Part shown: piece by piece, positions 1-62,402 of the stretch
How positions within the stretch are numbered: the stretch's first letter is position 1
How the letters are laid out: every line of letters begins with the position of its first letter
Source of the DNA: an uncultured virus (IMG/VR IMGVR_UViG_2740892351_000003)
Taxonomy: Duplodnaviria; Heunggongvirae; Uroviricota; Caudoviricetes
Reading direction: 5' to 3' (one strand)
IMG/VR virus record: IMGVR_UViG_2740892351_000003
Location: 62,001-126,000 of that record
Length of the DNA stretch: 64,000 bases
The notes under the pieces: model-generated
What the model was told of the DNA's origin: nothing
Database searches by the model: none
What the model saw: the letters and a program-made list of their open reading frames with translations, nothing else
Program-made: the position numbers and the translations under genes

Positions 1-1233
1 TTTAACTGTATAAACATTTCCATTATATTTAATCAAGTCATTTGGCTGATACAATGATTTTTGCTTCCTTATTCTTCTTTGACCTTTAGATATTTTCTGA
101 CCTCTGAACATTCTAAGATTTTCAGAATTTAAATTCTTGTTTCTAGTCCTTCTTCCACAATTAAGTTCACTTGCGGAAACCTTCTCACCAGTTCTATTAT
201 CTATATATTTAGCATCATAGAATTTTTCAAGACTTCTATTATTTAATCTTGACTGTTCAACTTTAAATATTTCTAAATTTCTAACTTGATTAACACCTTT
301 AGCTATAGCAAAAGCATCATTAAAATGACTTTTTTCTATACCATGTTCAATTCTATGATTTTTAGTCAAATAACCATAAGTTGCTTTAATGTTAGTATAT
401 TTTTCTTTCAACTGTTCCAATAAGTACCATCTTATCATTGACATAAATGTAGCATCTCTAAAACCTCTGACCTTTTTACCATTTTCACACCAATCATACA
501 AAAATTTCCCCTTTTTATGATTAGGAGATGTATGACATTTATTACACAAAGTTATTAAATTACTAGGAGCATCAGAACCACCCTCACTCTTGTACTTAAT
601 ATGATGAATTTCTAATATTTGTTCTTTACTCTTATTCTTACAATTAGGATTTTGACATTTATGTCCATCTCTATGAAGTACATATTCTCTAACATTCCAG
701 AAACCCATTTGTTCTCCCTGTTGATATTCTACACCAGATATATCAGGATTCTTGATTTTTTGTATATCAAAATTAGCAACCTCTAATACTATATTTCTGA
801 TAGGCAATATAGAATTAAGATAATCTATAAATTTAAGATGGGTATTCAATTTATGTTGTAAACTTGGTGCTAACCATCCTTGTCTTATTTTTCTATTGTT
901 CCATCTAGGTTTTCTATATCTTAATCTTTGTCTCCTAATTCTTCTATACTGACTTTTTTCTAATAATCTATCTTTCATACCTTGAAGCAATTTTACTTCT
1001 CCAACTATTAATTCTTTACTATCTGTTATAGCTGAAAATCCTATATTTAAATATCCACTATCTATCCCCAATGTTATAGTTTGAATATATTCAGTATCTG
1101 TCTTATACAGTAATTGTATAATAAATGGATTAACTTTTTTAACAGTAGCTTTCTTTTGATTCAATAATTTTCTAGCCTTTGCATTAGTAGTAGGCATTAA
1201 TGGCTTTCCTTCAAAATTAATTACATATACCAT
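1..1233 (-). CDS. iscB: IscB RNA-guided endonuclease (IS200/IS605 OMEGA system); 3' end runs off the window
   Basis: Not in the ORF track. Manual translation from ATG at 1233: MVYVINFEGKPLMPTTNAKARKLL (PLMP domain), LGIDSG (RuvC-I), RRIRRQRLRYRKPRW (bridge helix), LEVANFD (RuvC-II), RDGHKCQ..EIHHI..GGSDAPSNLITLCNKCH (HNH), KSHFNDAFAIA (RuvC-III). Confidence 0.95.
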   Translation of the reverse strand, partial: MVYVINFEGKPLMPTTNAKARKLLNQKKATVKKVNPFIIQLLYKTDTEYIQTITLGIDSGYLNIGFSAITDSKELIVGEVKLLQGMKDRLLEKSQYRRIRRQRLRYRKPRWNNRKIRQGWLAPSLQHKLNTHLKFIDYLNSILPIRNIVLEVANFDIQKIKNPDISGVEYQQGEQMGFWNVREYVLHRDGHKCQNPNCKNKSKEQILEIHHIKYKSEGGSDAPSNLITLCNKCHTSPNHKKGKFLYDWCENGKKVRGFRDATFMSMIRWYLLEQLKEKYTNIKATYGYLTKNHRIEHGIEKSHFNDAFAIAKGVNQVRNLEIFKVEQSRLNNRSLEKFYDAKYIDNRTGEKVSASELNCGRRTRNKNLNSENLRMFRGQKISKGQRRIRKQKSLYQPNDLIKYNGNVYTVK

Positions 1234-25778: not shown

Positions 25779-26609
25779 ATGAATGGTGAAAAACTTATAG
25801 AAAATAAAGAATTAAGAGATAGAAATATAGATAGAGTAGATGTGTTGGAACATGTGAAAGAGATATTAACTTTAGCAAATACAGATTTTAGTACAGTAGA
25901 ACTTGTTTCTGAGTATTATGAAGTAGATAGAGATACAATAAAAAAACTTATACAGAGAAATAGAATTGAATTAGAATTAGATGGTCTTAAGTTATATAAA
26001 TACAATGATATAGCTGAAGTACTTGAAAATACTAAAAAGGGACTGGATGTCACTTTTAAAATTCCTCCAAGAGGTCTAATATTAATACCTAAAAGAGCTA
26101 TTCTTAGAATAGGCATGTTACTTAGAGATTCAGAAGTTGCTAAAGAAGTTAGAACTAGATTACTAGATATTGTACATGATGCAGAAGAACAAACTGAAAT
26201 TGTAATAGAAGAAATTAGAAATGAACAAAATATAAAAGAAGACATGCTTGAAGCGATAATTTCTGGTGACCATAATAAATTATCTGTACTACAGACAGAA
26301 TTAATAGGGTTGAAGAATAAAAGAATATCTCATTTAGAAGATGTTATAACTAATTCAGTCACTATAACAGAAAGTAAAGCTATTATTAATAAATGTGTTA
26401 GAACAATAGCAGTTAAAAAATTTAATTGTATGTTTGGTAAAGCCTGGGATGAATTTTATAGATTTATTAACTATAAACTTGGCATTAATGTTAGAAATCG
26501 AAAAGGTAAAGGATTAGCTAGATTTTCAGATGAAGAAATCTTAAAGATGGAAAAGATAGCTAAAAGCTGGTTAGAGGAAAATGATATAGATTTTAAATTG
26601 GTAATATAA
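25779..26609 (+). CDS. Antirepressor-like DNA-binding protein
   Basis: VSEYYEVDRDTIKKLIQRNRIELELDG..KRAILRIGMLLRDSEVAKEVRTRLL, followed by a coiled coil. Confidence 0.6.
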   Translation: MNGEKLIENKELRDRNIDRVDVLEHVKEILTLANTDFSTVELVSEYYEVDRDTIKKLIQRNRIELELDGLKLYKYNDIAEVLENTKKGLDVTFKIPPRGLILIPKRAILRIGMLLRDSEVAKEVRTRLLDIVHDAEEQTEIVIEEIRNEQNIKEDMLEAIISGDHNKLSVLQTELIGLKNKRISHLEDVITNSVTITESKAIINKCVRTIAVKKFNCMFGKAWDEFYRFINYKLGINVRNRKGKGLARFSDEEILKMEKIAKSWLEENDIDFKLVI

Positions 26610-26627
26610 TTTAAATTTGTTTTCAAA

Positions 26628-26704
26628 AGGGATATAGCTCAGGTGGTTAGAGCATTCGGTTTATACCCGAAAGGTCATAGGTTCGACTCCTATTATTCCT
26701 ACCA
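26628..26704 (+). tRNA. tRNA-Ile (anticodon UAU)
   Basis: AGGGATA/TATTCCT acceptor stem, GCTC/GAGC D stem, TTCGG-TTTATAC-CCGAA anticodon arm, ATAGG-TTCGACT-CCTAT T arm, encoded CCA. Confidence 0.9.
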
Positions 26705-26709
26705 AATAT

Positions 26710-26800
26710 GGAGAGGTACTCAAGTGGTAAAGAGGATAGTTTGCTAAACTATTAGTTCAATTAATTTGATACGAGGGTTCAAATCCCTTCCTCTCTTCCA
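26710..26800 (+). tRNA. tRNA-Ser (anticodon GCU), long variable arm
   Basis: GGAGAGG/CCTCTCT acceptor stem, ATAGT-TTGCTAA-ACTAT anticodon arm, GAGGG-TTCAAAT-CCCTT T arm, CCA. Confidence 0.88.
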
Positions 26801-26855
26801 ATAAAAAAAGTTTGTTATTTTTAAATAATATTTTAATTAAAAGGGAGATGTTTTT

Positions 26856-27473
26856 ATGGTTAAATATAATGTTCATAAAGCTTTAGCAGAAAAGAAGTTA
26901 TTAGAAGATAAGATAGATAGATGCATTAGTAATTTCAAAATTGTAGGTACTAAAAAAGGGTCTGATAAAAATGTATATGAAACAAAAACAAGTGTAGAAG
27001 ATTTTAATGTAGAAGTTTCAAGTAAATACCAACAAATAGAAGATTTAATATATAATTATAACGCATTAGATAAAGCAATTAATATCTCTAATGCTGTAAC
27101 AAATGTTCAAATTGCTAATAAAAATTATACAGTTTTAGAAGCAATAAAAAGAAAAAATAGTATAGAATTAGATAAATCCTTGTTGAGACAAATGGTTAGT
27201 AACTATGATTGTATGATGTCTGAAGTAAATCGTAGAAATGAAGAAGTACAAAGAAATACAGATAAAATGTTTGAGGAAAAAGAAAAAAGTAAAGATGGAG
27301 CAGAATTTATTTCATTTTATAAAAAACAACAAGAATGGTCTTTAGTAGACCCTTTAAAAGTAAGAGAGAAAATAGAAAAGTTAAGGGATGAAATAGAAGA
27401 ATTTGAAAAAGAAGTTGATTTTGCATTGAGTACATCAAATGCACTTACAATTATAGATGTAGATTTAAAATAG
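26856..27473 (+). CDS. Coiled-coil protein, tentatively DIP1984/DUF6847-like
   Basis: VHKALAEKKLLEDKI, SNAVTNVQI..YTVLEAI, LVDPL..EVDFALSTSNALT. The family resemblance is from memory only. Confidence 0.55.
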   Translation: MVKYNVHKALAEKKLLEDKIDRCISNFKIVGTKKGSDKNVYETKTSVEDFNVEVSSKYQQIEDLIYNYNALDKAINISNAVTNVQIANKNYTVLEAIKRKNSIELDKSLLRQMVSNYDCMMSEVNRRNEEVQRNTDKMFEEKEKSKDGAEFISFYKKQQEWSLVDPLKVREKIEKLRDEIEEFEKEVDFALSTSNALTIIDVDLK

Positions 27474-27495
27474 TCCTTAATTGAGCTATTTTTTA

Positions 27496-27794
27496 ATTTG
27501 CAGGTTAGGCGAATAACATAAATTATAAGTTCCCATTTGATTTTGGGTTAAAAATCAAACTGCTTATATAAAAAGTGATGGGTACATACAAACGAAACGA
27601 TTGTACTGTATAAAAGAGAACAATGGATATAAAGCTTAAAGTTAAAAATTCAAATATAAAATCTCAAGGATAAAAGATTAAATTATTAAAATAGTAAAAA
27701 TAAAATAAAAAAGTTATAGAAAATCCTTGATAAATGCTAAATGCGTTAACTTATATTAGCTATTGTTAGCTACAAGGCTGCCTAATTTGCAAAT
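27496..27794 (+). ncRNA. Candidate ~300-nt structured RNA with a heptamer array
   Basis: 16-bp closing stem 27496-27511/27779-27794, nested stems, eight 7-nt units at 27630-27685; no substantial ORF. Confidence 0.6.
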
Positions 27795-27846
27795 AAATAT
27801 ATTCCCAGTAGAGCTATAGATAATATAAAAATAAAGGAGAAAATAT

Positions 27847-28034
27847 ATGAAAAATAATAAAGGAACGATTTTAGAAAATGTGAAGTAATAAAACAAGAAG
27901 ATGGTACTTATAAATTTATAGAGCATACAAAAAATGGCGATAATGAAGTGTTATCTAGTGATGTTTTTGACCAGTATATTGGAAAAACAGATTTAAATAT
28001 AACGATAAGATTAAGTGAAACAATAGTCCAATAA
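27847..28034 (+). pseudogene. Small protein (SPbeta YonK-like position) with a 1-nt frameshift
   Basis: AAGGAG RBS plus ATG; the frame stops after 13 codons while an overlapping frame continues EVIKQEDGTYKFIEHTKNG..ETIVQ*. 188 nt = 3n+2. Confidence 0.55.
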
Positions 28035-28111
28035 ATCAATATTAGACTATTTATTTTTTTACTTAATATATTGATAATGATATTTATGTGATAAACAGGG
28101 AGATATTAAAT

Positions 28112-29305
28112 ATGGAAGACATATTGAAGAAAAAAGAAGATGAGTCACTAGTTGACTATAGGATTAGAATACGACTGGCAAAGGTTAATAAAGAGATAGA
28201 TTTGGATTGGGGAGAGATGGTTGAACTATTGGGGTTAGAATGTTCTCCAGACCATTGTAGGAAGGTTTCTTATGGGTTGAAAGAGGCTTTTGATTATCTT
28301 AATTCTAAAGTACAAGATAATTCTGCTCAAGAAGAGATTGATAAAATAAATGAGAAAATATTAGAGCTGAAAAAGATAAAAGTACAGTTATCTGATGAAA
28401 GGTCATTAGTAAATAAGAAAATAAGAGAATATTCAAGAATAGATAATATAATTGATTTATTTAATAATAAAATAGATGATATATCACTTCATAAGCCATT
28501 TCTAAGTGATTCTAGTTACAAATGCTATGAATCTTCAAATCAAGAGGCTATTATGCTAATCTCAGACATACATTATGGATTAGAGACTATTAATGCATTT
28601 AATAGATATAATTCAGAAATATTCAAGATAAGAATACAATATTTAAAAGATAAAATTATTGAATATAGTAAGTTGCATAAGATTAATAGACTGCATGTAA
28701 TGCTACTTGGAGATTTAATCTCTGGCCACATACATAATTCTATAAGATTAGAAAATAGAGAAAATATAGTTGAACAAATTATAGAAGTATCTGAAATACT
28801 TAGTGAATTTATATATGAATTATCTAAAGAAATTGATAAAATTATTGTTTATTCAGTTGATGGAAATCATGATAGGGTTCTTCCTAAAAAAGATGAAAAT
28901 TTAGATAAAGATAATTTTACACTATTAATAGATGAATATATAAAACTAAGAATTAAAAGTTTAGATAATGTAATATTTCAAGAGAACATATATGATAATG
29001 ACATAATAGTAACTAGAATATGTGGAAATACATGTTTCGCAGTACATGGAGATAAAGATAAAATGTCTACAGCAATTCCTAAATTAACCTCTCTTATAAA
29101 ATCAATTCCTGATTATATTTTCATAGCTCATCTACACAATTGTAAAGAAGATAGTTATGGAGAAAGTGAAATTATTGTAAATGGAAGTTTTTCTGGAACA
29201 GATACATATGCTAAGAATCTAAGATTAAGTTCATATGCAATGCAAAAATTAATGATATTTAATGATGATGGAAGATTATGTACTTATAATATTAAGCTTA
29301 AATAG
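28112..29305 (+). CDS. Calcineurin-like metallophosphoesterase/exonuclease
   Basis: SDIHYG, LGDLISG, GNHDR, VHGD, AHLH motifs. Probable start at ATG 28112. Confidence 0.88.
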   Translation: MEDILKKKEDESLVDYRIRIRLAKVNKEIDLDWGEMVELLGLECSPDHCRKVSYGLKEAFDYLNSKVQDNSAQEEIDKINEKILELKKIKVQLSDERSLVNKKIREYSRIDNIIDLFNNKIDDISLHKPFLSDSSYKCYESSNQEAIMLISDIHYGLETINAFNRYNSEIFKIRIQYLKDKIIEYSKLHKINRLHVMLLGDLISGHIHNSIRLENRENIVEQIIEVSEILSEFIYELSKEIDKIIVYSVDGNHDRVLPKKDENLDKDNFTLLIDEYIKLRIKSLDNVIFQENIYDNDIIVTRICGNTCFAVHGDKDKMSTAIPKLTSLIKSIPDYIFIAHLHNCKEDSYGESEIIVNGSFSGTDTYAKNLRLSSYAMQKLMIFNDDGRLCTYNIKLK

Positions 29306-40288: not shown

Positions 40289-41107
40289 ATGAAAAGATTT
40301 GCAGTGAAAGATGCAGGTAATGTAATAGTAAAAAATAAAGTAACAGGAGAAGTATTGTTTTATTCACAGGATTTAAATGCTTTTAATTTTAAGATGGATT
40401 CAGAATCAGTTTATGCAAAAGCTAAAGGTGCAAATACAATAGCTTTTGATGGAGCAATAACAGCAAGTTTAACAATGGAACAAGAAGTAATACAAATGGC
40501 ACAATTAGCGATGTTATTATCTTCTGATATAGATGAGAAAACTGCAAAGGTTGGGAAAAGAAAAGTATTAACATCTGATAGTACTAAGAAAGTTACTTTA
40601 GAAAATATAAAGCCAGTTGCAAATAGCATATCTGTATATAGTATAGAAAGTGATGGAATATCTATAATTAAAAAATTACAATTCACTTCATCAGTTACAG
40701 GAGCTAATACAGAAATAACAATATCTACAGCCGATTTTAATGCGGGAGATAAAGTAGCAGTATTCTATTTAGAAGAAATACCAAAAGCAAAAGTTGTAAA
40801 AATAAAAGAAGAATCTACTGCACCAAATTACGTTGTAGAAGCTGAGGTAATGGTTAAAACTGTGGATGGTGAATATATGGTTTTATACATGAGTGTTCCA
40901 AATGCAAAAGCACAAAGAAGTATAGAGTTAAATCTTACTGCTGAGAATCCATCTGGATTTAATATGACATTAGATGTTTTACCAGATGAAAATAAAGAGT
41001 ATGCTACATTCACATTTATAGGAGATGAAAATCTTAATCCTGCTAGAATGGCTTCAATGCTAGGTGTTGAATTAGAAGATGAAAAAGATACTAAACCTAA
41101 GAAATAG
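40289..41107 (+). CDS. Major tail (tube) protein
   Basis: KRFAVKDAGNV..VYAKAKG..LTAENPSGFNMTLDVL; flanked by terminators. Confidence 0.7.
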   Translation: MKRFAVKDAGNVIVKNKVTGEVLFYSQDLNAFNFKMDSESVYAKAKGANTIAFDGAITASLTMEQEVIQMAQLAMLLSSDIDEKTAKVGKRKVLTSDSTKKVTLENIKPVANSISVYSIESDGISIIKKLQFTSSVTGANTEITISTADFNAGDKVAVFYLEEIPKAKVVKIKEESTAPNYVVEAEVMVKTVDGEYMVLYMSVPNAKAQRSIELNLTAENPSGFNMTLDVLPDENKEYATFTFIGDENLNPARMASMLGVELEDEKDTKPKK

Positions 41108-41205
41108 TAAAATACCCTACTCTTAATTGAGTAGGGATTATTTTTTTACGTTTAAATGTGGTTTTAATCGGATTTGAACTTAAAAAAATGAAAGAAGGTG
41201 ATAAA

Positions 41206-41991
41206 TTGGTATTTTTAGATGATAAGTTTTTATTTGATAATGTTTCAAGTGAATCTATGAACATCAAATTAGTTACATTAGGTGATGATGAAATACTGAA
41301 TGAATATGGATTGCCTTATGAAGAAGCAATTAAATCTGATAGCAGTTTTAATAAAAATCCTTGTTACAGTGAAGATGAAACTACTATAGAACCTATAACA
41401 TTACAATTCTGTTTATGTAGCGAACATGGGGAGGCTTATGAATGGGATGATTATACGCTAGAAAACATATGCAATTGGTTTTGGCAGAGAGAATTTAAAC
41501 CTTTTATCAGTTATGACAATATAGAAGAAATATACTATTTCAAAGCGAGAAAGATAATAAAAAGATATACAAAAGATAAAAAAGGTGTATTAGAAATAGA
41601 GTTTCAACCATATACAAATTATGCTTATAGAAGCTTTCAAAAAGTTATAACTGTCAAGGATACAAGGGAAATTAAACTAAATAATGTGTCTAATGTAGAT
41701 GAAGAATATGCTCCAGTAATTGATATTGAATGTCTAAAAGAAGGAGATATAACTATTAGAAATTCTACTATCAGCGATAATGAAGAAGACAATTTAGTTA
41801 TAAGTGGATTAGAATTAAATGAAAAAATAACAATAGATAATTTATACTATACTGTTTTAAATAGTTCTGGTGAGAATAGGTTTAATATTGTTAATAGAAA
41901 GTGGATTAGGTTAAGAAGAGGTGTAAATATATTGAAGTTTACTGGAAACTGTAAAGTTTCTATTAAGTGTAAATATCCAATAATAAAATAA
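41206..41991 (+). CDS. Distal tail (Dit)-like protein
   Basis: FLFDNVSSESMNI..NWFWQREFKPF..PYTNYAY..WIRLRRGVNILKFTG. TTG start at 41206 after GAAGGTG. Confidence 0.7.
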   Translation: MVFLDDKFLFDNVSSESMNIKLVTLGDDEILNEYGLPYEEAIKSDSSFNKNPCYSEDETTIEPITLQFCLCSEHGEAYEWDDYTLENICNWFWQREFKPFISYDNIEEIYYFKARKIIKRYTKDKKGVLEIEFQPYTNYAYRSFQKVITVKDTREIKLNNVSNVDEEYAPVIDIECLKEGDITIRNSTISDNEEDNLVISGLELNEKITIDNLYYTVLNSSGENRFNIVNRKWIRLRRGVNILKFTGNCKVSIKCKYPIIK

Positions 41992-43115: not shown

Positions 43116-43901
43116 ATGGAAAATGAAATGAAAGTAGAAGTCTTTAAAAATGAGCAGTTTGGTGAAATTAGAGTGTTAGAAAAAGGTGGAGAACCTTGGT
43201 TTGTGGGAAAAGATATAGCTAAAATGTTAGGATATTCCAATTCAAGAGATGCCTTAAAAAAGCATATCGACGAAGAGGATAAGGGGGTAGCGAAATGCGA
43301 CACCCTTAGAGGAAGACAAATTTTAACAATTATTAATGAAAGTGGATTATATAGTTTAATCTTAAGTTCTAAGTTGGCAGAAGCTAAAAAATTCAAAAGA
43401 TGGGTGACAAATGAAGTATTACCTACAATAAGGAGACATGGAGCATACCTGACAGATGATAAGATAGAGGAAATATTGTCCAATCCAGATACAATTATAA
43501 AACTGGCTACAGAACTAAAAGAAAAGAGAGAAAAAATAAAACAATTAGAAACAGAAGTTGTCCATAAAGAAGATGTGATAATTGGATTAGTTGAAGATAT
43601 AAGTTTAGCAGAGAAAAGACAAAGAATTAATCAGATAGTTAAATATAAGGTAGAGCCTAAGAATTTCAGTAAAAGATGGAATTTATTATATGACGAATTT
43701 GAGAAAAAATATCATTTGGATTTGAAAAGAAGAATTAATAATTGTGATATCAAACCTAAAATTAAGAATAAGATAGACTATATAGATAGAGAAATGAGTA
43801 TGATTCCTCAATTGTATGAGATAGCATGTAAACTGTTTGAAAATGATGTGGAAGACTTAAAGAATGAATGGATTTCTGTTATAGAAGAAAAAGTTTGTTA
43901 G
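43116..43901 (+). CDS. BRO-N domain antirepressor
   Basis: FKNEQFGEIR..PWFVGKDIAKMLGYSN..INESGLYSLILSSKL..KFKRWVTNEVLPTIRRHG. Confidence 0.9.
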   Translation: MENEMKVEVFKNEQFGEIRVLEKGGEPWFVGKDIAKMLGYSNSRDALKKHIDEEDKGVAKCDTLRGRQILTIINESGLYSLILSSKLAEAKKFKRWVTNEVLPTIRRHGAYLTDDKIEEILSNPDTIIKLATELKEKREKIKQLETEVVHKEDVIIGLVEDISLAEKRQRINQIVKYKVEPKNFSKRWNLLYDEFEKKYHLDLKRRINNCDIKPKIKNKIDYIDREMSMIPQLYEIACKLFENDVEDLKNEWISVIEEKVC

Positions 43902-44029
43902 ATTTAGATGTGACAAATAGTCACTTATGAGATAGCATTGATAATTGAATAATAAGGCTAGAGAGATTAGTCTAATATCATTGTTATTCTAATCTCTTAA
44001 ACTAAATAAAATTAAAAGGAGATTGGAAT

Positions 44030-44773
44030 ATGAATAATTTAATGGTATTTGAAGGTAAAGAGGTAGAAATATTTGAACTTGATGGGAAGATTTTATTTAA
44101 TCCAAGAGATGTGGCAGAATGTTTAGAATTAAGTGAAAGTGCAACAAGAAATCATTTATCTAAAATGAGTGATAAACAAGCGATATTATTAAGAAATTCA
44201 GATGTCCGAGATAAGGGCATCCGAAAATTAAATAATGCAGGAGAGAAATTTCTTACAGAAAGTGGAGTATATAAACTGATATTTAAATCAAGAAAAGAAA
44301 AAGCAGAGAGGTTTCAAGATTGGGTAACTGATGAAGTATTGCCATCTATTCGTAAAACAGGTTCATATAATATGAATCATGACAATATAAAAGATGTATT
44401 AATACCAATCATGTTAAATGGTATGTTAGCAGGATTTGAACAATTTTCAATAGAAAATGATAAGAAAATAGATGATAGATTTAACCAGATAAAAAATAGA
44501 ATGGATGAAAAGATTAATGATGTAAAAAATCTAATTGGATTTAGGTCTAAGAATATAACTATGTTGTCAAAATTATTAAAGTTAAAATTATCTTACATTA
44601 AAGGTTATAATGTTAATGCAAATGACTATGATTATAGAAGTACGACCACTAAGATTTTTTCAAGGTATAATGTGTCTAAATGGGAAGATATACCTGTATC
44701 TAAATTTAATGAAGTTCATGCTTTGATTGACACTTTAGAAGAAATAGATGATATATATACCTGGAAAAATTAG
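44030..44773 (+). CDS. BRO-N antirepressor with ORF6C-like C-terminus
   Basis: FLTESGVYKLIFKSRKEKAERFQDWVTDEVLPSIRKTG; YNVSKWEDIPVSKFNEV. Confidence 0.88.
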   Translation: MNNLMVFEGKEVEIFELDGKILFNPRDVAECLELSESATRNHLSKMSDKQAILLRNSDVRDKGIRKLNNAGEKFLTESGVYKLIFKSRKEKAERFQDWVTDEVLPSIRKTGSYNMNHDNIKDVLIPIMLNGMLAGFEQFSIENDKKIDDRFNQIKNRMDEKINDVKNLIGFRSKNITMLSKLLKLKLSYIKGYNVNANDYDYRSTTTKIFSRYNVSKWEDIPVSKFNEVHALIDTLEEIDDIYTWKN

Positions 44774-52818: not shown

Positions 52819-53874
52819 ATGTTTAAAAAGATATTGTTGATTGGACTTGTAAGTATACTAGGATTTGGAGTTATTGGATGTAGTGATAGCAAAGAAGAAA
52901 AAGTAGATTATGATTATTATAATTCAAGTACATCATTAGCGTTTAAAGATGGTTTAGCTCGTGTAAAAGTTGGAGATAAGTGGGGGTTTATTGATAAAGA
53001 AGGTAATGAGGTTATAAAACCTCAATTTGATAATGCTGAACATTTTTTTGAAGGATTAGCTGTTATAGAGAAGGATGGTAAGTGGGGGTACATAGATAAA
53101 AATGGAGATATAGTTGTAAAACTACAGTTTGACTATGCTAAATCATTTAGTGAAGGATTAGCTGGGGTTGAAATAAATGATAAATCTGGTTATATAGATA
53201 AGACTGGAGAGATGATAATAGAACCACAATTTGATTATGTTAATGAGTTTAGTGAAGGTTTAGCTAATGTTTCAAAGAAAAATGAACATGGATATATAGA
53301 TAAAAAAGGAAATCTTGTTATTGATTATCAATTCAATGAAATTAGTGGTGAATTTAATGAAGGATTAGCATATGCAATGATTGAGGATGGTAATCGTGAA
53401 TATATAGATAAAGAAGGAAATATTTCTATTCAACCTAAATTTAAAGAAGCGGATAATTTTAATGAAGGATTAGCTAGAGTTAAAACAGATGATAAATACG
53501 TATATATAGATAAAACTGGTAAAACAGTTTTAAAACCAAAATACAATTATCTAGGAAGTTTTAAAGATGGATTAGCACCAGTAGGTATGAATGATAAGTA
53601 TGGATATATAGATAAAAAGGGGAACACAGTAATAGAACCCAAATTTGATTATGTTAAAGAATTTAGTGAAGATTTATCAGAAGTCAAAATGAGTGATAAA
53701 TGGGGATACATAAACAAAAAAGGTGATGTTGTTATAAACCCAAGATTTGATGAGTCTAATCCATTTAAAGAAGGATTGGCATTTGTTTTAAAAGATGGAA
53801 AATGGGGAGCTATAGATAAAGAGGGGAAAGTTATTATAGACTTTAAGTATTCAGACGAGGATTTGAAAAATTAA
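52819..53874 (+). CDS. WG-repeat lipoprotein
   Basis: Lipobox VIGC after a signal peptide; about seven F.EGLA.V...KWGYIDK.G repeats. Confidence 0.9.
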   Translation: MFKKILLIGLVSILGFGVIGCSDSKEEKVDYDYYNSSTSLAFKDGLARVKVGDKWGFIDKEGNEVIKPQFDNAEHFFEGLAVIEKDGKWGYIDKNGDIVVKLQFDYAKSFSEGLAGVEINDKSGYIDKTGEMIIEPQFDYVNEFSEGLANVSKKNEHGYIDKKGNLVIDYQFNEISGEFNEGLAYAMIEDGNREYIDKEGNISIQPKFKEADNFNEGLARVKTDDKYVYIDKTGKTVLKPKYNYLGSFKDGLAPVGMNDKYGYIDKKGNTVIEPKFDYVKEFSEDLSEVKMSDKWGYINKKGDVVINPRFDESNPFKEGLAFVLKDGKWGAIDKEGKVIIDFKYSDEDLKN

Positions 53875-53941: not shown

Positions 53942-56900
53942 ATGGCTGAAGAGTTTAAGATTAAGACCAGTATTGAGCTTGATGACAAAGAAGCTAGAGA
54001 AAAAATAGAGAAATTAAAAAATAGTGGTCAAGATAAACCTATTAAATTAAATTTGAAAATAGGTGAATTAGATAAGTTATCACAACAAGCAGAGCAATTA
54101 AAAGGGATATTCAATAAAGCTTTTAAGATTGATAATACTGCTTTGAGCAACTTAAAGCAAATTGAATCTACTATGAAAGAAATAAATAAACTAAGTAGAA
54201 GAAGTCAAGAGAGCTTACTTGGTGGTGGCTTTGGAAACACAGGAAATATAAATAATGAACAGCAAGATTTAATAAGACAATATAAAGAAATCTCAAATGT
54301 TGTATCTAGACTTCAAAATCAGATGAGAACAGGTCTAGGAGATAGTTCAATTGAAAGAACAACAGAACAAATTGAAAGATTAAAAAGACAATTAGATTCA
54401 GTGTATGCACAAATGAATTCATCATCTCAAGCTAGAATGGATATGTTTGATGCTTCAAGAGCAACAAGAGATTTAGCTGATATGAATAGAAATCTTTCAA
54501 GAATAGAAGATATGGCAACACAAGCATCTGCTAGGCTTAATGGATTAGGCGATAATATAGATACAGATAAAGTAAATAGACTTAGGAATGAGTTACAAGA
54601 ATTAAAACAGACAGCTAGTAGAAATATAGATTTAAATCTTGATGTAGGTAATATAGTTAATAGAATACAAGAGATAAATCAAGAAGTTAGAAATTTAGAA
54701 AGAGTTGATAGCTTAAGGTCTAATTTCAGTAGAATAGAAGATTCTATTAGACAGGCATTTGGGCATGAGAGAGTTGAAGCTTTTAGACGTTCTTTAGAGC
54801 AACTTCAAGGTTCGGCAGGAAATCTAAATGGTGATTTTAACAATATATTTGATAGACTAACAAGAGAAATGAGAGATGCGAGACAAGAAGCTGAAAGATT
54901 AAATAATACAGTTTCAAAGGGTGGAGGGTTTTTTAATGATTTCTATTCATCTATAGCATCCTATTCTATTGGAGATATGTTGGGCGATGCTTTAACTGAC
55001 GGAATTAGGTCTATGAAAGATGTTATATTAGAGCTTGATAGCTCTATGACTGACCTTAAAAAGGTTGCAGAACCAACAGATATTGATAGCACATCTGAGT
55101 TAGATAAGATAAGGGAAAAAGCAATACAAACAGCTAAAGATGTAGGAATGAGTGCATCACAAGTTCAAGAATCAATAGCATCTTCTTTACAAGCAGGAAT
55201 TGGAGGTATGCAAGAAAGTATTGCTGCTGCAAGACAATCAATGATACTTGCCAATGTAGGGGACATGGATGTTGAAGGTGCTTCTTCAGCAGTAAACACA
55301 ATAATAAATGGATTTAGAATTGAACCTTTAAAAGAAATGCAAGTGCAGGTTGGAAATACTACAAAGAAAACAACAGAATTAACTGCTGCAATGGATATGC
55401 TAAATTGTTTGGCGTGTTAGATAGAAATATCTAATATTATGAGGGGGCAAAATCGGTGAAGGCTGAGATGCTACCACCGAGGTAAATTAAAGAATTAAAA
55501 AACTTTAATCACCGTAACGCATAGGAAATGAACCTATGCTATTTTTATGTTTAAAATAGTATAGAATATAATTTTCCCACGAGTGTCCTCCATCTTAACA
55601 GATAGTGCTGAAGATGAAAATATATGCTGAACTTACATGAATAAGAAATGTAAGAACTACAAGATAAAAAGCTTGTAGGATAACAATTTGAAACTATGCA
55701 GGAAATAATTATGCAATTGGAACAGCAGGTGTTGCCGAAGCGATTAATTTTAGTCGCCTTATATAGTAATATATAATGATAAACTCCTTTAACTGCTGGA
55801 AACTCCTGTTAGGCTTTTAGTACTAAGTGTAACAATCTAAAAGATAGGGACAATCAGCAGCCAAGACTCAATAGAGTAAGGTTCAACGACTAGGTTATAA
55901 ACCGTACATATCAAGCTATTGGATATGGAAATGGGGAGCATCCTTATAGGATGAAGATATAGTCTCGTCTGTATGGAAACATATAGCAGTTCATAAGAGA
56001 ACGGATTAAGTGTAGCGAACTTAATTGAAGATAAACGGAAACGTGGAGGTAGTGTACTTCATGAGTATGGTGTCAGTTTAGGTGACACAGTGGGTATGAT
56101 AACAGCAACAAATGAGGCTATACAAAATCCAGAAAAAGTAGGTAAATTTAAATTGCCGTCTTAGTTCAACAATCATAGAAGAATTAGGATTATTAATGGG
56201 AAAGAAACGGGAAAGCTTTAAAATGCCAATCCGAGTGGAAGGCTAATTTTAAAAGATTAGTCACACGCAACGCATAGAGATTGAAACTAGAAATAGAATA
56301 TAATATCTCCAAGAGTTCCCATTTGCTTTATGATTTAATTATAAGTAAAAAAGGTATGCTAGACTGGACTTGAAATGACAAGTCGATGAAAATGAGGGAA
56401 ACCTCCAGAGCAGTAGATAAAAAGCTACTGGTTAATAACAATCGAATGGTTTAAAAAGTGTCGCAATAAATTTAGCAGGTATGAAGGTTTCAGCTGATGA
56501 TGGTACACTTTCTTTAAATAAAACTGCAAAAGGTTTAAAGGAAATAGCTGGAATAACTATTTATAAAAATAAAGATACTGGTGAATTGAAGAATATGGTT
56601 CAACTCTTAGATGAGTTGAAAGGCAAATGGGGAGAACTCAGAGAGGATGAACAAAAAGGATTGGCTGAAGCAATAGCAGGTAAGCAACAAGCAGCTATAT
56701 TCCAATCCTTAATGGGTAATTATGAGACTTTTAAAGAAATAAGAAGTGAATTTTCACAAGGATTACAATTTGGTTCGGCTGAGGCTGAAAACAAACAATA
56801 TTTAGATAGTCTTGCAGGGCGTTTAAATGAGTTGAAAACAATATGGGCAGATATATTCCAAACTGTATTTAATTCAAATACAACATATGGATTTTTAGAT

Positions 56901-59900
56901 GGTTTAATATCTGTATCTAATGGAATAAATAGTGTTATAAAAACATTAGAAAGATTAAAATTAACAACACCAGCATTAATAGGAAGTTTTATGACTTTAA
57001 AAACGTTATTCTCTGGTATGGGAATGACAAATGGTACTAGAAATGTGGCTAGACTTATAAATCCTTTAAATATGATAGGAACTCCTATTAAAGCTACAAC
57101 TACAATACTACAATCATTTAGACATGCAGTAATGGCAGCAAATGTAGCTGGTGCTAATGGAGCAAATGTAATTACTAGAGCAGGAACAGGTTTGGGAGCA
57201 TTAAGACAAAGTTTATCTAGGACTTCTATTGGTATTGGAACATTAAATATAGCAACAAGTTTGTTAAATGGAGCTATGATAGGTTTAGCTACTTTTGCTA
57301 TATCTAAGGGGATACAATGGATAGATGATACTATTCATAAATATGAAAAACTAGCAGAGAAGCAAAAAGAAGTTATTGGAACTACTACAAGTGAGATAAG
57401 CTCTTTGCAACAGAAGAAAAAGAGTTTAGAGGGTATATCAGAGGAGTACAATAATTTAGCTAGTAAAACCGAAAAAACTGCTGATGAAACTGCTAGATTT
57501 AGTGAACTTAAACAACAAATTGCAGATATAGCACCAGAATTAGTATTGGGTGTAGATGAGAATAATGACCCTATTCTAAATATGAGTGGTAACTTAGATG
57601 AGGTCATTAATAAATTAAGAAAGGCTATAGAAGAAAAAAATAAACTTTTAAAGTCTCAAGAAGATGAACTTGCAATAACTACATCAAAGACTGCACCAAA
57701 TACAAAAAAAGACCTTGATAAAGAAAAGAAAAAACTTGACAAAGTTCTTGAAGATGAGAATAATTTATTTAAAAATGCTTTAAGTAAATCTAATTTTAAA
57801 GAACAAACAGAAGCATTAAAAAAGGCTTACAACCAACAAGAAACTGATTTTGCAGAACATCATCAAAACCTTCTTACTGAATATGAAAAATATAATGAAG
57901 AAGAAGAGGTAATGCAAAAAAGGGCAATTAATAGATTAACTAATTCTGATATATCTAAAACATATGCTAAGCAATCTGAACAAAAGAAAAGTAAAATGAA
58001 TGAGCTTGTGGCTAATATGAATTGGCATGACTATAGTGTAGGACAACAGAATAGTATTATAAGTGCTTTTGATAAAATAAGTCAGTCAATTCCTGTTGAA
58101 AAATTAGACCAGTGGAATAAGAAGATAACTGATGCCAATACAAATTATCAAGCATCTGGCGATATGAACCAATATACTAAAGAGTTACAAGGTTTAGCAA
58201 ATGAACTTCAAAAACTAAGTGGAGGAAGTATAAGTGCTGATACATGGCTTGTTGGATTACAACAAGGCTTCTATGGATTAGATTTAGCTAGTGTAAAATT
58301 ACATACTTTCTTGAAAAGTTATGGTTCGTCTTTAGCTGAATTTGAGAATAAAGACAGTCTTGCAATAAAGCTTAAAAATCAATTTGATGCATTAAATGAT
58401 TTTTCTCAAGATTTAGAAGTCAATGGTAAAATCAATGTAAAACTGCTTGAAGATATACAAAGTGGAGAAGATGGTCAAGATTTACCACAACAATTAAAAG
58501 AATTTATAAATGGAATAATGGCTGATGGTGATGCTCCAATTGAAGCTGAATCAGAACTGCTTCTTCAAATTACTACTAAAATTGAAAATGAAGGGCAATT
58601 ATCAAATGATGTTGTTGAAAAGTTAAACAGACTTTTTAAAGGTGAATTAACTCCATTAGAAATAGGTGATGGATTAAAAATCAGTGATGATTTACCTCCA
58701 TTATCAAAAGAAATGGTTCAAGCATTAAATGATAAATATAAAGAAGAATTTAAAAAGAATAAAGTTGCACCTGAAATTACCCCTAGTGTCAATGGAAAAA
58801 AAGCTAAAAAAGAATTAAAAGAATTAGAACAATTCAAAAAAAACACATTTAAATCAGATAAAATTGTGACTGAAATTAATAATAAAGGACTAGATTTCGC
58901 AAAAAAAGACTTGAGTGTATTAAAAGAACAGTTGGATAGATTTAAAAATGAAGATACAAAGTTGTCTTTTACTACAGATTGTGCAGATGCTTTTAAAGAT
59001 GTAAATTCTTTAGAGGAAGCTAGAAAAAAAATATCTGCTCCAATGAGTTTAAAATATGATATAGATGTAGATAAAAAAGGATTGACTGAAGCAAAAAAAG
59101 TCTATGATATTTTACCTGATAATCTCAAAAAAAAGATAGAAACAGAAGTAATAGGTATAGATAAATTAGACACATTACAAAACTTAATAGATAAAGCTCC
59201 AAATAAAAAAGAAACTATATTTGAAATAATTAATAAAAATCCAGATAAACTAAATGAGATAGATGAAATTCTTAATAATGTTCCAAATGATAAAAAGGAA
59301 GCTGTTATTGATTTTATAGTAAACAATTTAGACCAACTTGAAAAAGCTAAAAATGTACAAGAATTAATAAACAGTCTACCTCCAGAAATAAAAAAACAAC
59401 TTGGAATAGAAGTTGAAGGAGGAGAAAATGCAGAGAAAACTGTTAATACAGTTCAAAATGCAGATGGAACTAAGGCTGACCTTTTAGTAAATGCAGAAGT
59501 AAATGGAGAATCACAAGTAGTTGAATGCATAGAAACATTAGATAAGAATGGGAATAAAACATACACTCCTAATTTGAATCCTCAAGTTAATAATAGTGAA
59601 AAAGTTGTTCAGTGCATGAGAATATTAGATGAATATGGAAATGAATCTTATATTCCAATTGTAAGTCCTCAAGTTACTAATGAAGAAGGGCTTAACAGTA
59701 CTAAACAAAAAATGGATGAGTTAGATAATAAAACAGTAACTTCAACTGTACAAATAAAGACAGAAGGAGAAACTGAAGTTGAACAAGCAACCAATTTTAT
59801 AGAAAATACAAATCCAACTAAGGTTATTGAGTTATCCATAAACAACTCTGGTAAAGATGAAATTGACAATACAAAACAAAAGTTAGATGAACTTAATAAT

Positions 59901-62402
59901 GAAAAAGCCACTCCTACTATTGAAGCTACAGGTGCAGAACAAGCATCCAAACAATTAAATCAATTATCACAAAAAGCACAAGAAATTGGGCAAGGTAATT
60001 ATCATATAAATGTTAGTACTTCAACTGAACAAGGGGCTAAGAATATTTCAGGACTTATAGCTAGAGTAAAACAATTCTTAGCTTTGAAAGTATCTACACT
60101 TGTATTTAGAACTGAAACTGCACAAGCAGCAAAAAATGTATCAGGTTTGTTAGCCAAAGTACAAAGTTATGTTAGCCGATATGGTGGAAAAACTATAAAG
60201 ACTACATTTAGTGCATTAACTGCAACTGCTGCAAAGAACATATCAGGGCTTATTAGGAAAATAGAGTCATTTAAATCAAATTATGCAGGAAAAACATTCA
60301 CTACTACATTTGTAACTAATAAAGTGACTAATAGTTCTGGTGGTGGAGGAGGAGGAAATAGTTCAGATAAGACCAATAAAACTGAACGTACCTCTGTTAC
60401 TAATGTAACTCCAATTCCAGCTAATCTATTAGCTCAACCTAGAACATCAGAACCAGCACCAATAAGTGACGAAACTCCTGTAACACCAAAACCATCCTTA
60501 TTCTCAAGAGCAGTATCAAGAGCCACATCCGCTTTCAAAGTAATCAAACCTAAAGTTACAATAAACAATGACACAATAGACTCATCTGTAAAATATAGTA
60601 TAGAATTATTTAAAGAGTTAGAAAATGCTATATCAGCAGTAACAAATGAAATAGCTCTATTAGACAAAAAAATGGAACATGCTACAGGTGATGAGAAGAT
60701 TAAATACTTACAGGAGCAAAATAAATTATTTGCTCAACAAAAAGATTTAATAAAACAACAACAAGATGGATATAAAGCTGAAAGTAACAGACTTAAAAAT
60801 AGATTAAAAGAAAAGAAAATGGGCTTTAAGTTTGATGATACTGGAAATCTAACTAACTATGAAGAAAAGTTAATATCAATAGAAAAAGAATTAGACAAAT
60901 TAAATTCAAAGTCTGGTGACAAAGAAAATAAAAAAGATGAATCCAGAAAAAAAGAGTTGGAAGAAACTAAGAAAGTCCTTGAAGAATATATTAAAGTTAC
61001 ATTTACAGAACTGCCTAAATGTGAGCAAGAATGGGAAGAATACAATAATAAAATTAAAGAACACAATGAGGAGTTAAGGAAAGCACAAGAAGAAATGTGG
61101 AAACTTAATAAGAATTCCACATGGACTTCTATGTACAAAGATGTAGAGCAAGTAAATAATGAAATAGCAATGATAGATGTATTACTTAAAAATGCTACAG
61201 GTGATGAGCAGATAGAGTTGTTAGAAAAGAAAAAAGAGTTAATGGCCAAGAAGGCTAAAGAACTATCTGAAACAACAGCATATCTTCAAGAAACACAAAA
61301 AGAGCTACAACAAAAGCTACAAGGCTATGGATTTACATTTAGAGATAATGGCGATATAACTAACTTCATTCAACATAAAAATCAACTTAAAAAGAACATG
61401 ACTGATGAAGAATTTAAGAGAATGGAAGAGGCAGCAGAGGGATATTTGGATTTATTGATAAATAAAATACCTGATGCCAATAAGGAAATTGCTGAATCTA
61501 AGGAAGAAATTGAAGCATTAAATAAAGAAATTCAAGATGCTTATAAAGACCAGCTTAAAGAAGCTCAAAGCCTACAAGAAAAAATTAGAGACATGTATAA
61601 AAAAGAGCTTGAAGAGAGACTTAAAGAAATAGATAAAGAAACTAAAGCTAAAATTGATTCTCTTAAAAAGCAACAAGATGCTTACAATGATTCAAGAAAA
61701 GAAGCCAAATATAAAGATGATTATGAAGAACAACAAGATGTAATAAGTGATTTAGAAAAACAAATAGCAATAGCTGAAAGAGATAGTTCTTTAAGTGGTC
61801 AGAAGAAACTTAAAGATTTACAAAAACAATTAAAAGAAGAACAGAAGAAATTACAGGATTTAGTACAAGACCATGTAGACGACCAAGTTAACGATATGTA
61901 TGACAAGGAATCTGACAGACTACAAGAAGAAGCAGATAAGTTAAAAGAAGAGTTAGAGAAAAAATACTCAGATGAAAATTTAGTTGATTTAATTAATGAA
62001 GCAATTTCAAGTGGTAAATTTGTAGGTCTTGATGGAGAGGTTAAGAAACTTCAAGATGCTATTATTGAATACATAAATAAATATGAAGATGGTATGTTGG
62101 CAATGGGTTCTGTCACTAAGCAGGAATGGCTTGATAAGCTAAAAGAAGGTAAAGAGACATTAGAAGATATTAACGACATATTAGATGAATTAGATTTAAG
62201 TAAATTTGCTATGCCTAATTATAATCCTTCTTCAAATTCTCGTTCAAGAAGTGTGTCTCCAACATCATCAGTCAACTTTAATTCACCATTCTTTGTTGTT
62301 CAAGGAAATGTAACTAAGGATACTATGAAAGACTTAGAGAAATTTGGTAGAGATTTAGAAAATAGAGTATATAGAAAAATAGTAGAAAATATTAAATCAT
62401 AG
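53942..62402 (+). CDS. Tape measure protein, spliced: join(53942..55401,55691..55744,56038..56143,56445..62402), 2525 aa
   Basis: The TP901-type TMP core (ELDSSMTDLKKV, ILANVGDM) continues across the junctions as MDML-NYAGNNYAIGTAGVAEAM-KRGGSVL..NPEKVG-NGLKSVAINL. Total 7578 nt in one frame. Confidence 0.9.
55402..55690 (+). ncRNA. Group I intron 1 (289 nt, no ORF)
   Basis: Exon ends in U and pairs with IGS GGCGUGU; terminal G; P4 AUCGGUG/CACCGAG; P7 GCAUA/UAUGC. Confidence 0.85.
55745..56037 (+). ncRNA. Group I intron 2 (293 nt, no ORF)
   Basis: Canonical P AACUGCUGGAAA, Q AAUCAGCAGC, R GUUCAACGACUA, S AAGAUAUAGUCU. Exon GCGAU pairs with IGS GUCGC; terminal G. Confidence 0.92.
56144..56444 (+). 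ncRNA. Group I intron 3 (301 nt, no ORF), related to intron 1
   Basis: Exon GGU pairs with GCC; AAACGGGAAA/AAUCCGAG; CAACGCAUAG..GUAUGCUAG (P7); terminal G. Shares AUAGAAUAUAAU and AGAUAAAAAGCU with intron 1. Confidence 0.85.

Follow-up and report, generated by a model that had tools for sequence, protein, structure and literature searches.

We analyzed a stretch of 64,000 nucleotides from an uncultured virus, here called the window, which covers positions 62001 to 126000 of the 139,236-bp IMG/VR record IMGVR_UViG_2740892351_000003. The phage is of the same kind as the large plasmid-like siphoviruses of Clostridioides difficile (phiCD211, phiCDIF1296T, LIBA2945, LIBA6276, and AR1086-1). In the window, a gene for a 205-aa protein of the phrog_1491 family is followed on the same strand by a structured RNA of 299 nt, whose 5' arm begins 22 nt past the stop codon. 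Comparison with related loci establishes, at the level of sequence, the RNA itself, its fold, and its plus strand, together with its near-obligate linkage to the protein gene and to tRNA clusters. The RNA family is real, widespread, and apparently undescribed. The reading that we tentatively favor is a dedicated ribonucleoprotein (RNP), in which the protein would assemble on the RNA that lies 3' of its own gene. The gene and the parts of the RNA are as follows.

26856..27473 (plus strand): open reading frame (ORF) of the phrog_1491 protein, 205 aa, homologue of T5.085; ends in TAG
27496..27794 (plus strand): structured RNA, whole (299 nt); fold z-score of -4.28; no Rfam family
27496..27511 / 27779..27794 (plus strand): P1, the closing stem; supported by covariation
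27514..27518 / 27763..27767 (plus strand): P1a, TAACA/TGTTA; supported by a permutation test and mutual information
27524..27531 / 27748..27755 (plus strand): P2, TATAAGTT/AACTTATA; a helix at conserved offsets
27532..27559 (plus strand): 5' H-type pseudoknot, with S1 (CCC, 27532-27534, and GGG, 27545-27547) and S2 (TTTGATTTT, 27536-27544, and AAAATCAAA, 27551-27559)
27560..27629 (plus strand): variable region with a local hairpin, GTACA (27582-27586)/TGTAC (27602-27606), predicted in the minimum-free-energy fold
27630..27685 (plus strand): heptamer array of eight units; supported by lag-7 identity and a family-wide period
27686..27724 (plus strand): A-rich spacer with looser AAAG-type repeats, ending in the conserved AAAGUU..AAAAU; conserved columns AAAG..AAAAUCC
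27725..27729 / 27773..27777 (plus strand): Pst, CCTTG/CAAGG, followed by a conserved C; supported by covariation

Fold and conservation of the RNA

In the window, the plus strand of the RNA folds with a predicted energy of -60.5 kcal/mol (z = -4.28), and none of 100 shuffled sequences did as well; the minus strand has a fold z-score of -2.69. The closing stem pairs ATTTGCAGGTTAGGCG (27496-27511) with TGCCTAATTTGCAAAT (27779-27794) through 13 Watson-Crick and 3 G-U pairs, and the S2 helix of the 5' pseudoknot, TTTGATTTT/AAAATCAAA, is an exact 9-bp inverted repeat. Pst crosses both P1a and P2, and the core of the RNA is therefore a pseudoknot. The region between 27560 and 27629 differs in length and sequence across the family.

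A sequence-only reading of this DNA had earlier described the ORF, the 22-nt spacing, the closing stem, and the heptamers, and all four were found where it had placed them. Of the six stems that it drew, the closing stem, TATAAGTT/AACTTATA, and TTTGATTTT/AAAATCAAA were retained, whereas two gave way to covarying partners. CCCAT/ATGGG was replaced by CCC/GGG (27532-27534/27545-27547), which yields the H-type pseudoknot, and TCAAGGAT/ATCCTTGA was replaced by the covarying CCTTG/CAAGG (27725-27729/27773-27777). The sixth, GTACA/TGTAC, falls in the variable region and stands as a predicted hairpin. A pairing that the GAAAAC linker may form with AAGGUUU, within the first half of the 3' loop, was set aside in favor of the nested P1a. 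With the window sequence alone, the case for the RNA is suggestive rather than compelling; it is the comparative data that make the evidence strong.

These data came from loci that encode relatives of the protein. We used 79 loci from IMG/VR, chosen as the best after 561 candidate stretches had yielded 407 confirmed ones, and their 3' flanks together with that of the window gave 80 flanks, or 61 distinct sequences. The RNA is present in all 61, with at least 11 of 12 anchored P1 positions paired and at least four of the five Pst pairs formed (five of five in 59 flanks and four of five in two). The two strands of Pst lie approximately 48 nt apart, and in 61 of 61 flanks the helix is placed right after AAAU and right before C(U/A)G. 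Across the family, the element is 281 to 460 nt long and its 5' arm starts 6 to 86 nt past the stop codon. The closing stem and the heptamer periodicity had been expected in the 3' flanks of homologues, and they recur there, the stem in 61 of 61 distinct flanks and the periodicity in all 40 members of the alignment described below.

Covariation was assessed in 40 sequences that differ in their stems, aligned with MAFFT. The 14 aligned pairs of P1 are 96.6% paired, and 13 of them change on both sides. Pst is 99% paired, with changes on both sides in three of its five pairs, and it occurs in at least 12 different complementary versions (e.g., CCACG/CGTGG, CCAAG/CTTGG, and CTAGG/CCTAG). The structure as a whole is 87.2% paired, compared with 58.6% in shuffles (none of 500 reached the observed value) and 34 to 44% when the 3' partners were slid by one to three columns. 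Anchored pairing in P1 amounts to 99.0%, compared with 60% (maximum, 68.5%) when the 3' arms were swapped among sequences. The anchored P1 count comprises 520 cells, which divide into 446 Watson-Crick, 69 G-U or U-G, 2 A-C, and 3 other combinations. The excess of G-U over A-C (69 versus 2) means that it is the plus strand that folds and that the element is therefore an RNA in the sense of the gene, as had been proposed from the wobbles in the window.

The inner helices are also conserved. In 36 of the 40 sequences, P2 runs for 6 bp or more without a break and at fixed offsets, compared with a mean of 13.6 (maximum, 21) for permuted partners, and its 5' strand takes 30 distinct forms; in the raw MAFFT alignment its pairing is 62.8% because of register shifts. 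A P1a helix of at least 5 bp is found in 32 of 40 sequences, compared with a permuted-partner mean of 17.1 (maximum, 25). The P1a pair 27518-27763 has one of the highest mutual-information values and, as AT, TA, or CG, is formed in 94% of the sequences; the strongest mutual-information pairs otherwise belong to P1 and Pst. The S1/S2 pseudoknot arrangement recurs with other sequences in approximately 24 of 40 members, as read by eye and without a control, and the remainder have a plain hairpin.

The heptamer array (27630-27685) has a lag-7 self-identity of 0.63 in the window, with a P value of approximately 0.008 when lag 7 alone is considered and of 0.066 when lags of 2 to 21 are all allowed. 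Only one other such place exists in the 64 kb, and Tandem Repeats Finder reports only a weak period-14 array. Within the family, all 40 members are most self-similar before Pst at a lag of 7 or 14, so the 7-nt period claimed from the letters alone is a real feature. The family unit is AARNUUY, also readable as UUYAARN, with A (0.87), A (0.79), R, N, U (0.55), U (0.77), and Y at its seven positions. We found no Watson-Crick-like covariation between the array columns and any other region in the 40 members. No pair of columns involving the array behaves like a base pair, and the array is therefore conserved as a sequence and not as a helix; the RNA may display it in single-stranded form.

That the RNA belongs to no named family, another point of the sequence-only reading, is borne out by Rfam 15. 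At gathering thresholds, a search of the whole window returned only a HEARO RNA, a group I intron, and two tRNAs, and a search of 26500 to 28200 with E values up to 10 returned only the tRNAs and two subthreshold plastid families lying over them. A full-text literature search yielded no description of the RNA or of T5.085. The paper PMC10690425 contains, in the part relevant here, a catalogue of 8,495 unnamed phage RNA candidates of 29 to 151 nt; a motif search of its supplements gave no match, with the alignment files outside the search, and fragments of the RNA could be among the candidates. The array in the Minerva preprint (10.64898/2026.09.22.753630) was considered and rejected, as the portion of that preprint describing it presents a different array linked to a reverse transcriptase.

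The protein and its linkage to the RNA

The 205-aa protein matches phrog_1491 with an E value of 8.5e-72 (residues 1 to 203 on profile positions 2 to 210 of 211) and has no Pfam, NCBIfam, or PADLOC match. By tblastn, relatives occur in 733 of 50,697 phage records, 588 of which cover at least 80% of the query. They are found in T5-like, rV5-like, Bastille-like, and Lactococcus 949-like phages, in Pseudomonas and Vibrio phages, and in a Ralstonia jumbo phage. An AlphaFold2 model built from 23 sequences (predicted local distance difference test score, 87.8) consists of long helical hairpins that a small four-stranded sheet connects at one end, in agreement with the earlier description of the adjacent protein as helical. 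Foldseek gave no match in the PDB at an E value of 0.001 or better. The top VIA-align match is 3kdq, whose function is not known (Z of 10.2; 150 residues aligned; root mean square deviation of 8.0). All its other matches, among them CT398 (Z of 7.9), HP0958 (Z of 7.2), and prefoldin (Z of 7.1), were dismissed, as they have Z values of 8 or lower, which are noise for helical proteins. A BFVD search returned eight uncharacterized phage proteins, and an ESM Atlas search returned unnamed viral clusters only.

The PHROG name of the family is "tail fiber protein," and the RefSeq gene carries the same label, apparently propagated from it. The phrog_1491 genes occupy tRNA or early regions and not tail modules, and no tail-fiber protein was among the fold-search matches listed. 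The label is probably wrong. The anti-retron protein Rad of the T5 tRNA region was also considered as an identity and rejected, since a passage in bioRxiv 10.1101/2023.03.15.532788 gives Rad as a 189-aa protein with primase/helicase and TOPRIM domains.

The linkage between gene and RNA holds in both directions, in line with the earlier proposal that the two form a pair. Starting from the gene, every one of the 61 distinct flanks has the RNA, and nearly all loci have an ORF-free gap of 400 to 700 nt after the gene. A nucleotide profile made only from six near-identical C. difficile phage copies matched, with nhmmer, 20 close and 26 distant loci (protein identity of 31 to 44%), all on the gene strand and 0 to 400 nt downstream; in the distant loci the matches cover the spacer part (27686-27724). 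Starting from the RNA, we scanned IMG/VR with a motif pattern that contains no protein information. The scan gave 102 stretches, of which 80 were retrieved; 73 of these have complementary bases in the variable stem positions, and 70 of the 73 have a protein homologue upstream on the same strand (E value of 1e-5 or better).

Ten of the retrieved loci lack the protein. Seven are noncomplementary chance matches, one looks like a chance match, and the remaining two (L097 and L150, identical over the compared stretches) have a 467-aa HNH/treble-clef homing-endonuclease ORF (19-1419) directly before the array and 3' domain (1420-1570). The HNH ORF may have been inserted into or beside the RNA, and the protein gene may lie beyond the retrieved flank. 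A 349-kb jumbo-phage contig in IMG/VR carries two gene-plus-RNA modules, 157 kb apart (L045 and L047).

Among named phages, the RNA was found in nine of nine, by script in T5, Av-05, BM15, Lactococcus phage 949, Vibrio phage Pontus, and Klebsiella phage KB57 and by eye in Pectobacterium phage My1, Ralstonia phage RsoM2USA, and Pseudomonas phage KIL1. In T5, gene T5.085 lies at 43505-44143 on the minus strand, and an RNA of approximately 343 nt fills the unannotated 363-nt gap (43142-43504) before T5.084. The T5 record also contains rnaX, a "stable RNA with unknown functions" of 719 nt (40848-41566) by tRNA-Arg; it lies 2 kb from T5.085 and is a separate locus.

The pair is further associated with tRNA genes. 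At least one tRNA gene lies within 3 kb in 56 of 79 loci, which are not independent of one another, and all of these tRNA genes are on the strand of the protein gene. Often a tRNA precedes the start codon by 40 to 58 nt, and a second one closely follows the RNA. In Bacillus phage BM15, for example, the gene begins 43 nt after a run of 17 tRNAs and is followed by a 489-nt gap, and in Klebsiella phage KB57 the RNA ends 11 nt before tRNA-Thr. In Ralstonia phage RsoM2USA and Pseudomonas phage KIL1, a hairpin and T run (read by eye) directly follow the RNA, and the KIL1 record annotates a terminator there. The same record annotates a predicted promoter at 53533-53561, inside the RNA and over the heptamer array; this prediction may be false and caused by the A/T-rich repeats. 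No third conserved partner emerged from the PHROG annotation of 90 flanking proteins at 20 diverse loci. The neighbors that recur among these 20 are PhoH-like ATPases (three loci), phrog_284 exonucleases (two loci), and homing endonucleases (several loci); the rest differ.

The surrounding locus

The stretch from 26600 to 28100 is matched by seven phage records with 94 to 99% identity over at least 80% of its length. It is situated between regulatory and replication genes on one side and packaging genes on the other. The genes downstream encode a metallophosphoesterase-like exonuclease (phrog_284), a phrog_3314 protein, and the terminase large subunit. Two tRNA genes stand immediately upstream of the pair, as had been noted from the letters, and both ARAGORN and Rfam identify them as genuine.

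26628..26704 (plus strand): tRNA-Ile, anticodon TAT; ARAGORN and Rfam (tRNA, 70.9 bits); first gene of the cassette
26710..26800 (plus strand): tRNA-Ser, anticodon GCT; ARAGORN and Rfam; 55 nt upstream of the ORF

The anticodon of the first tRNA is TAT (Ile, reading AUA), and the LIBA2945 record calls its counterpart tRNA-Met(cat). The number of upstream tRNAs varies among close relatives, which have none, one, or two. The C. difficile phages ES-S-0173-01 and pCD1602_4 lack tRNAs, ORF, and RNA alike, and homology with the window resumes at 27791 and 27820, respectively. Since they are absent together in two related phages, the set behaves as a cassette. A promoter-like site precedes tRNA-Ile (26581-26610), as a consensus match only. 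A scan of the window for promoters and terminators gave no excess over shuffles and no terminator-like site between the gene and the RNA.

Three further features of the window lie outside the cassette. Downstream of the RNA (27847-28035, plus strand), an ORF of 61 to 62 aa that is conserved in related phages is broken: its ATG frame stops after 13 codons, and the remainder (VIKQEDGTYKFIEH...) runs on in another frame. A frameshift could account for this, as could an error in sequencing through a run of A. On the minus strand, a HEARO (omega) RNA (1274-1477; 128.5 bits) adjoins a 411-aa ORF (1-1233, minus strand) that runs off the start of the window, and the two together look like an IscB-type OMEGA element within the phage genome. 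Finally, a group I intron (55736-55986, plus strand; 103.7 bits in Rfam) lies between the ORFs 53942-55420 and 56481-62402.

Candidate roles of the gene-RNA pair

Our favored reading, to which we give a little less than even weight, is that the protein and its 3' RNA form a dedicated RNP. The phrog_1491 gene and the RNA downstream of it would be transcribed together within a tRNA operon, and processing of the next tRNA or, in some phages, a terminator would define the 3' end of the RNA. Cotranscription followed by trimming by tRNA-processing enzymes or by termination appears to be the simplest reading because of the tRNA neighbors and the terminators at the RNA ends. TnpB omega RNAs are likewise cut from the 3' end of the mRNA of their own protein. 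A stem of 14 to 16 bp locks the ends of the RNA, and the nested rod of P1, P1a, and P2, tied by the crossing 5-bp Pst, makes up a compact core. The small 5' pseudoknot and the variable hairpins project from this core, as does the row of seven to eight UUYAARN heptamers, which is apparently unpaired. The protein, translated from the shared transcript, would then assemble on the RNA, with the heptamer row serving as a multivalent binding platform, and the outcome would be a dedicated RNP made alongside the phage tRNAs.

The protein probably binds the array. The biological role may be related to translation or to tRNA, or it may lie in counterdefense. A fuller version of the RNP reading has several subunits reading the phased UUYAARN row on a doubly pseudoknotted scaffold, much as the sequence-only reading had one repeat bound per subunit of an oligomer, in a new phage RNP whose target would be the translation or tRNA machinery of the host or a defense aimed at it; we regard this version as less likely than not.

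Several observations weigh against the RNP reading. The structure searches (Foldseek against the PDB and VIA-align) found no recognizable RNA-binding fold in the protein, and the protein is mildly acidic, with an isoelectric point of 5.1 to 6.5 in eight members. The thermodynamic probability of being unpaired is 0.43 in the array and 0.38 in the rest of the RNA, and although it is higher in the array in 28 of 40 members, the contrast is weak. Strict 3' adjacency is equally expected of a cis-acting element in a 3' untranslated region (3' UTR). The transcript data amount to RNA-seq contigs from two studies, which contain 46 to 54% of the words sampled over the whole of 26600 to 28100. As to the comparative statistics, the shuffle controls overstate significance, given that the family sequences share descent, and the stem positions in our own anchored scripts were picked by maximizing pairing.

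Other pairings of a protein with a structured RNA, and other phage RNAs of tRNA regions, resemble the pair only in part. OMEGA systems (TnpB or IscB with an omega RNA, such as HEARO) similarly have a protein and a dedicated structured RNA side by side; here, however, the protein is a 205-aa helical one without a RuvC or HNH motif or Pfam match, and there are no guide segment and no transposon ends. The T4 gene 32 operator likewise sets a pseudoknot beside an unstructured A/U-rich stretch with repeated UUAAA-like units. Those units are bound cooperatively by a protein with a site size of approximately 7 nt. The operator, however, is located 5' of its gene over the ribosome-binding site, whereas the present RNA is 3' of its gene, much larger, and closed by a long stem, and the phrog_1491 protein, as modeled, is not an OB-fold single-strand binding protein. 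A pseudoknot upstream of gp32 is also mentioned in a passage of PMC10690425.

T4 species 1 and 2 and T5 rnaX are non-tRNA RNAs within phage tRNA regions, from which tRNA-processing enzymes presumably free them; rnaX and the RNA after T5.085 are distinct loci. To our knowledge, T4 species 1 and 2 are shorter and have no partner protein. A Y RNA with Ro60 (Rsr) does not fit, as the 205-aa protein has no TROVE domain and no Pfam family, and for transfer-messenger RNA, ARAGORN reports only the two tRNAs in the window.

On the unlikely side, but to be taken seriously, is that the RNA works without the neighboring protein, either as an RNA-only assembly (compare ROOL and GOLLD) or as a decoy or sponge, and that the protein gene is linked to it for expression or in an accessory role. 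Candidates to be sponged by the A-rich heptamer row would be ribosomal protein S1 or 30S subunits, Hfq, an RNase, or a tRNA-directed defense nuclease. ROOL (RF03087) and GOLLD (RF01998) are, in the account given by passages of PMC12286853, large phage RNAs with multiple pseudoknots, often near tRNA islands, that have no known function or protein partner and that arrange a structured scaffold around a less structured, disordered internal linker. The acidic protein without an RNA-binding fold agrees with such a role, the spread of the family over phages of Firmicutes and Proteobacteria would suit a universal host target, and parts of bioRxiv 10.1101/2023.03.15.532788 report antidefense genes in the tRNA regions of T5-like phages. 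However, near-obligate pairing with one protein family (70 of 73 and 61 of 61) is hard to explain if the protein is irrelevant, the RNA has no homology to the ROOL or GOLLD models, and no analysis here singled out a host factor. The RNA is also smaller (280 to 460 nt) than these and strictly coupled to one protein gene, and its internal stretch is a sequence-conserved heptamer row where that of ROOL and GOLLD is a variable linker. Less likely again is a cis-acting 3' UTR, in which the knotted structure shields the mRNA of the upstream gene from 3' exonucleases or the protein feeds back on its own mRNA. The element always lies 6 to 86 nt past the stop codon on the same strand, often with a tRNA or terminator immediately after it, and in the window there is no promoter-like excess and no terminator between gene and RNA, all of which such a role would predict. 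Yet 280 to 460 nt with two pseudoknots, conserved single-stranded motifs, and phased heptamers far exceed what protection of a 3' end needs, and the motifs AAAAUCC, GGCUG, and GAAAAC and the array are kept at protein identities of 30 to 40%. Our impression, which is uncounted, is that other small ORFs of the same tRNA clusters have no such elements.

Two further readings seem to us very improbable, to a similar degree. One treats the element as DNA, which might consist of heptad iterons recognized by a DNA-binding protein, act as an origin of replication, or serve in packaging from its place upstream of the terminase genes. The omega repressor of plasmid pSM19035 binds an operator built of contiguous 7-bp repeats, a design that the array shares; this phage, a plasmid-like prophage with a partition gene, also has its terminase large subunit gene 2.5 kb downstream of the element. 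The asymmetry between G-U and A-C (69 versus 2) together with the covariation largely refutes this reading, as helices that tolerate G-U and not A-C are explained only by the folding of a single strand. In addition, the helix that crosses to form the pseudoknot is conserved, the pair is nowhere near the packaging genes in other phages, and no ribbon-helix-helix gene is adjacent. The other reading, raised in the sequence-only reading as a type III toxin-antitoxin-like module, has the repeat RNA neutralize a toxic protein. Such systems (ToxIN and AbiQ/antiQ) are known in phages and plasmids and likewise place a protein gene beside an RNA of short tandem repeats, and the present cassette is mobile. 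The anatomy nevertheless fails. Type III repeats are 34 to 40 nt long (approximately 36) and lie upstream of the toxin with a terminator between, whereas here the unit is 7 nt and sits inside a large folded RNA, the order is reversed, and there is no terminator. The protein, moreover, forms a helical hairpin bundle with no match to an endoribonuclease family (ToxN/AbiQ-like or other, in PADLOC or Pfam), and strictly lytic phages, T5 among them, have conserved the module.

Whichever role it has, a conserved two-pseudoknot RNA of 300 to 450 nt lies unannotated in hundreds of sequenced phage genomes, and its carriers include the model phage T5, Bastille-like Bacillus phages, Lactococcus 949 dairy phages, and large C. 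difficile prophages. It is a third kind of large ornate RNA in phage tRNA islands beside ROOL and GOLLD and, unlike them, has an evident candidate for a protein partner. With T5 and E. coli K-12, an experimental system is at hand, and the role of the large RNAs in phage tRNA regions thereby becomes directly testable. If the RNP reading is true, the pair would constitute a protein-RNA machine without a described relative, present in hundreds of sequenced phages, T5 among them.

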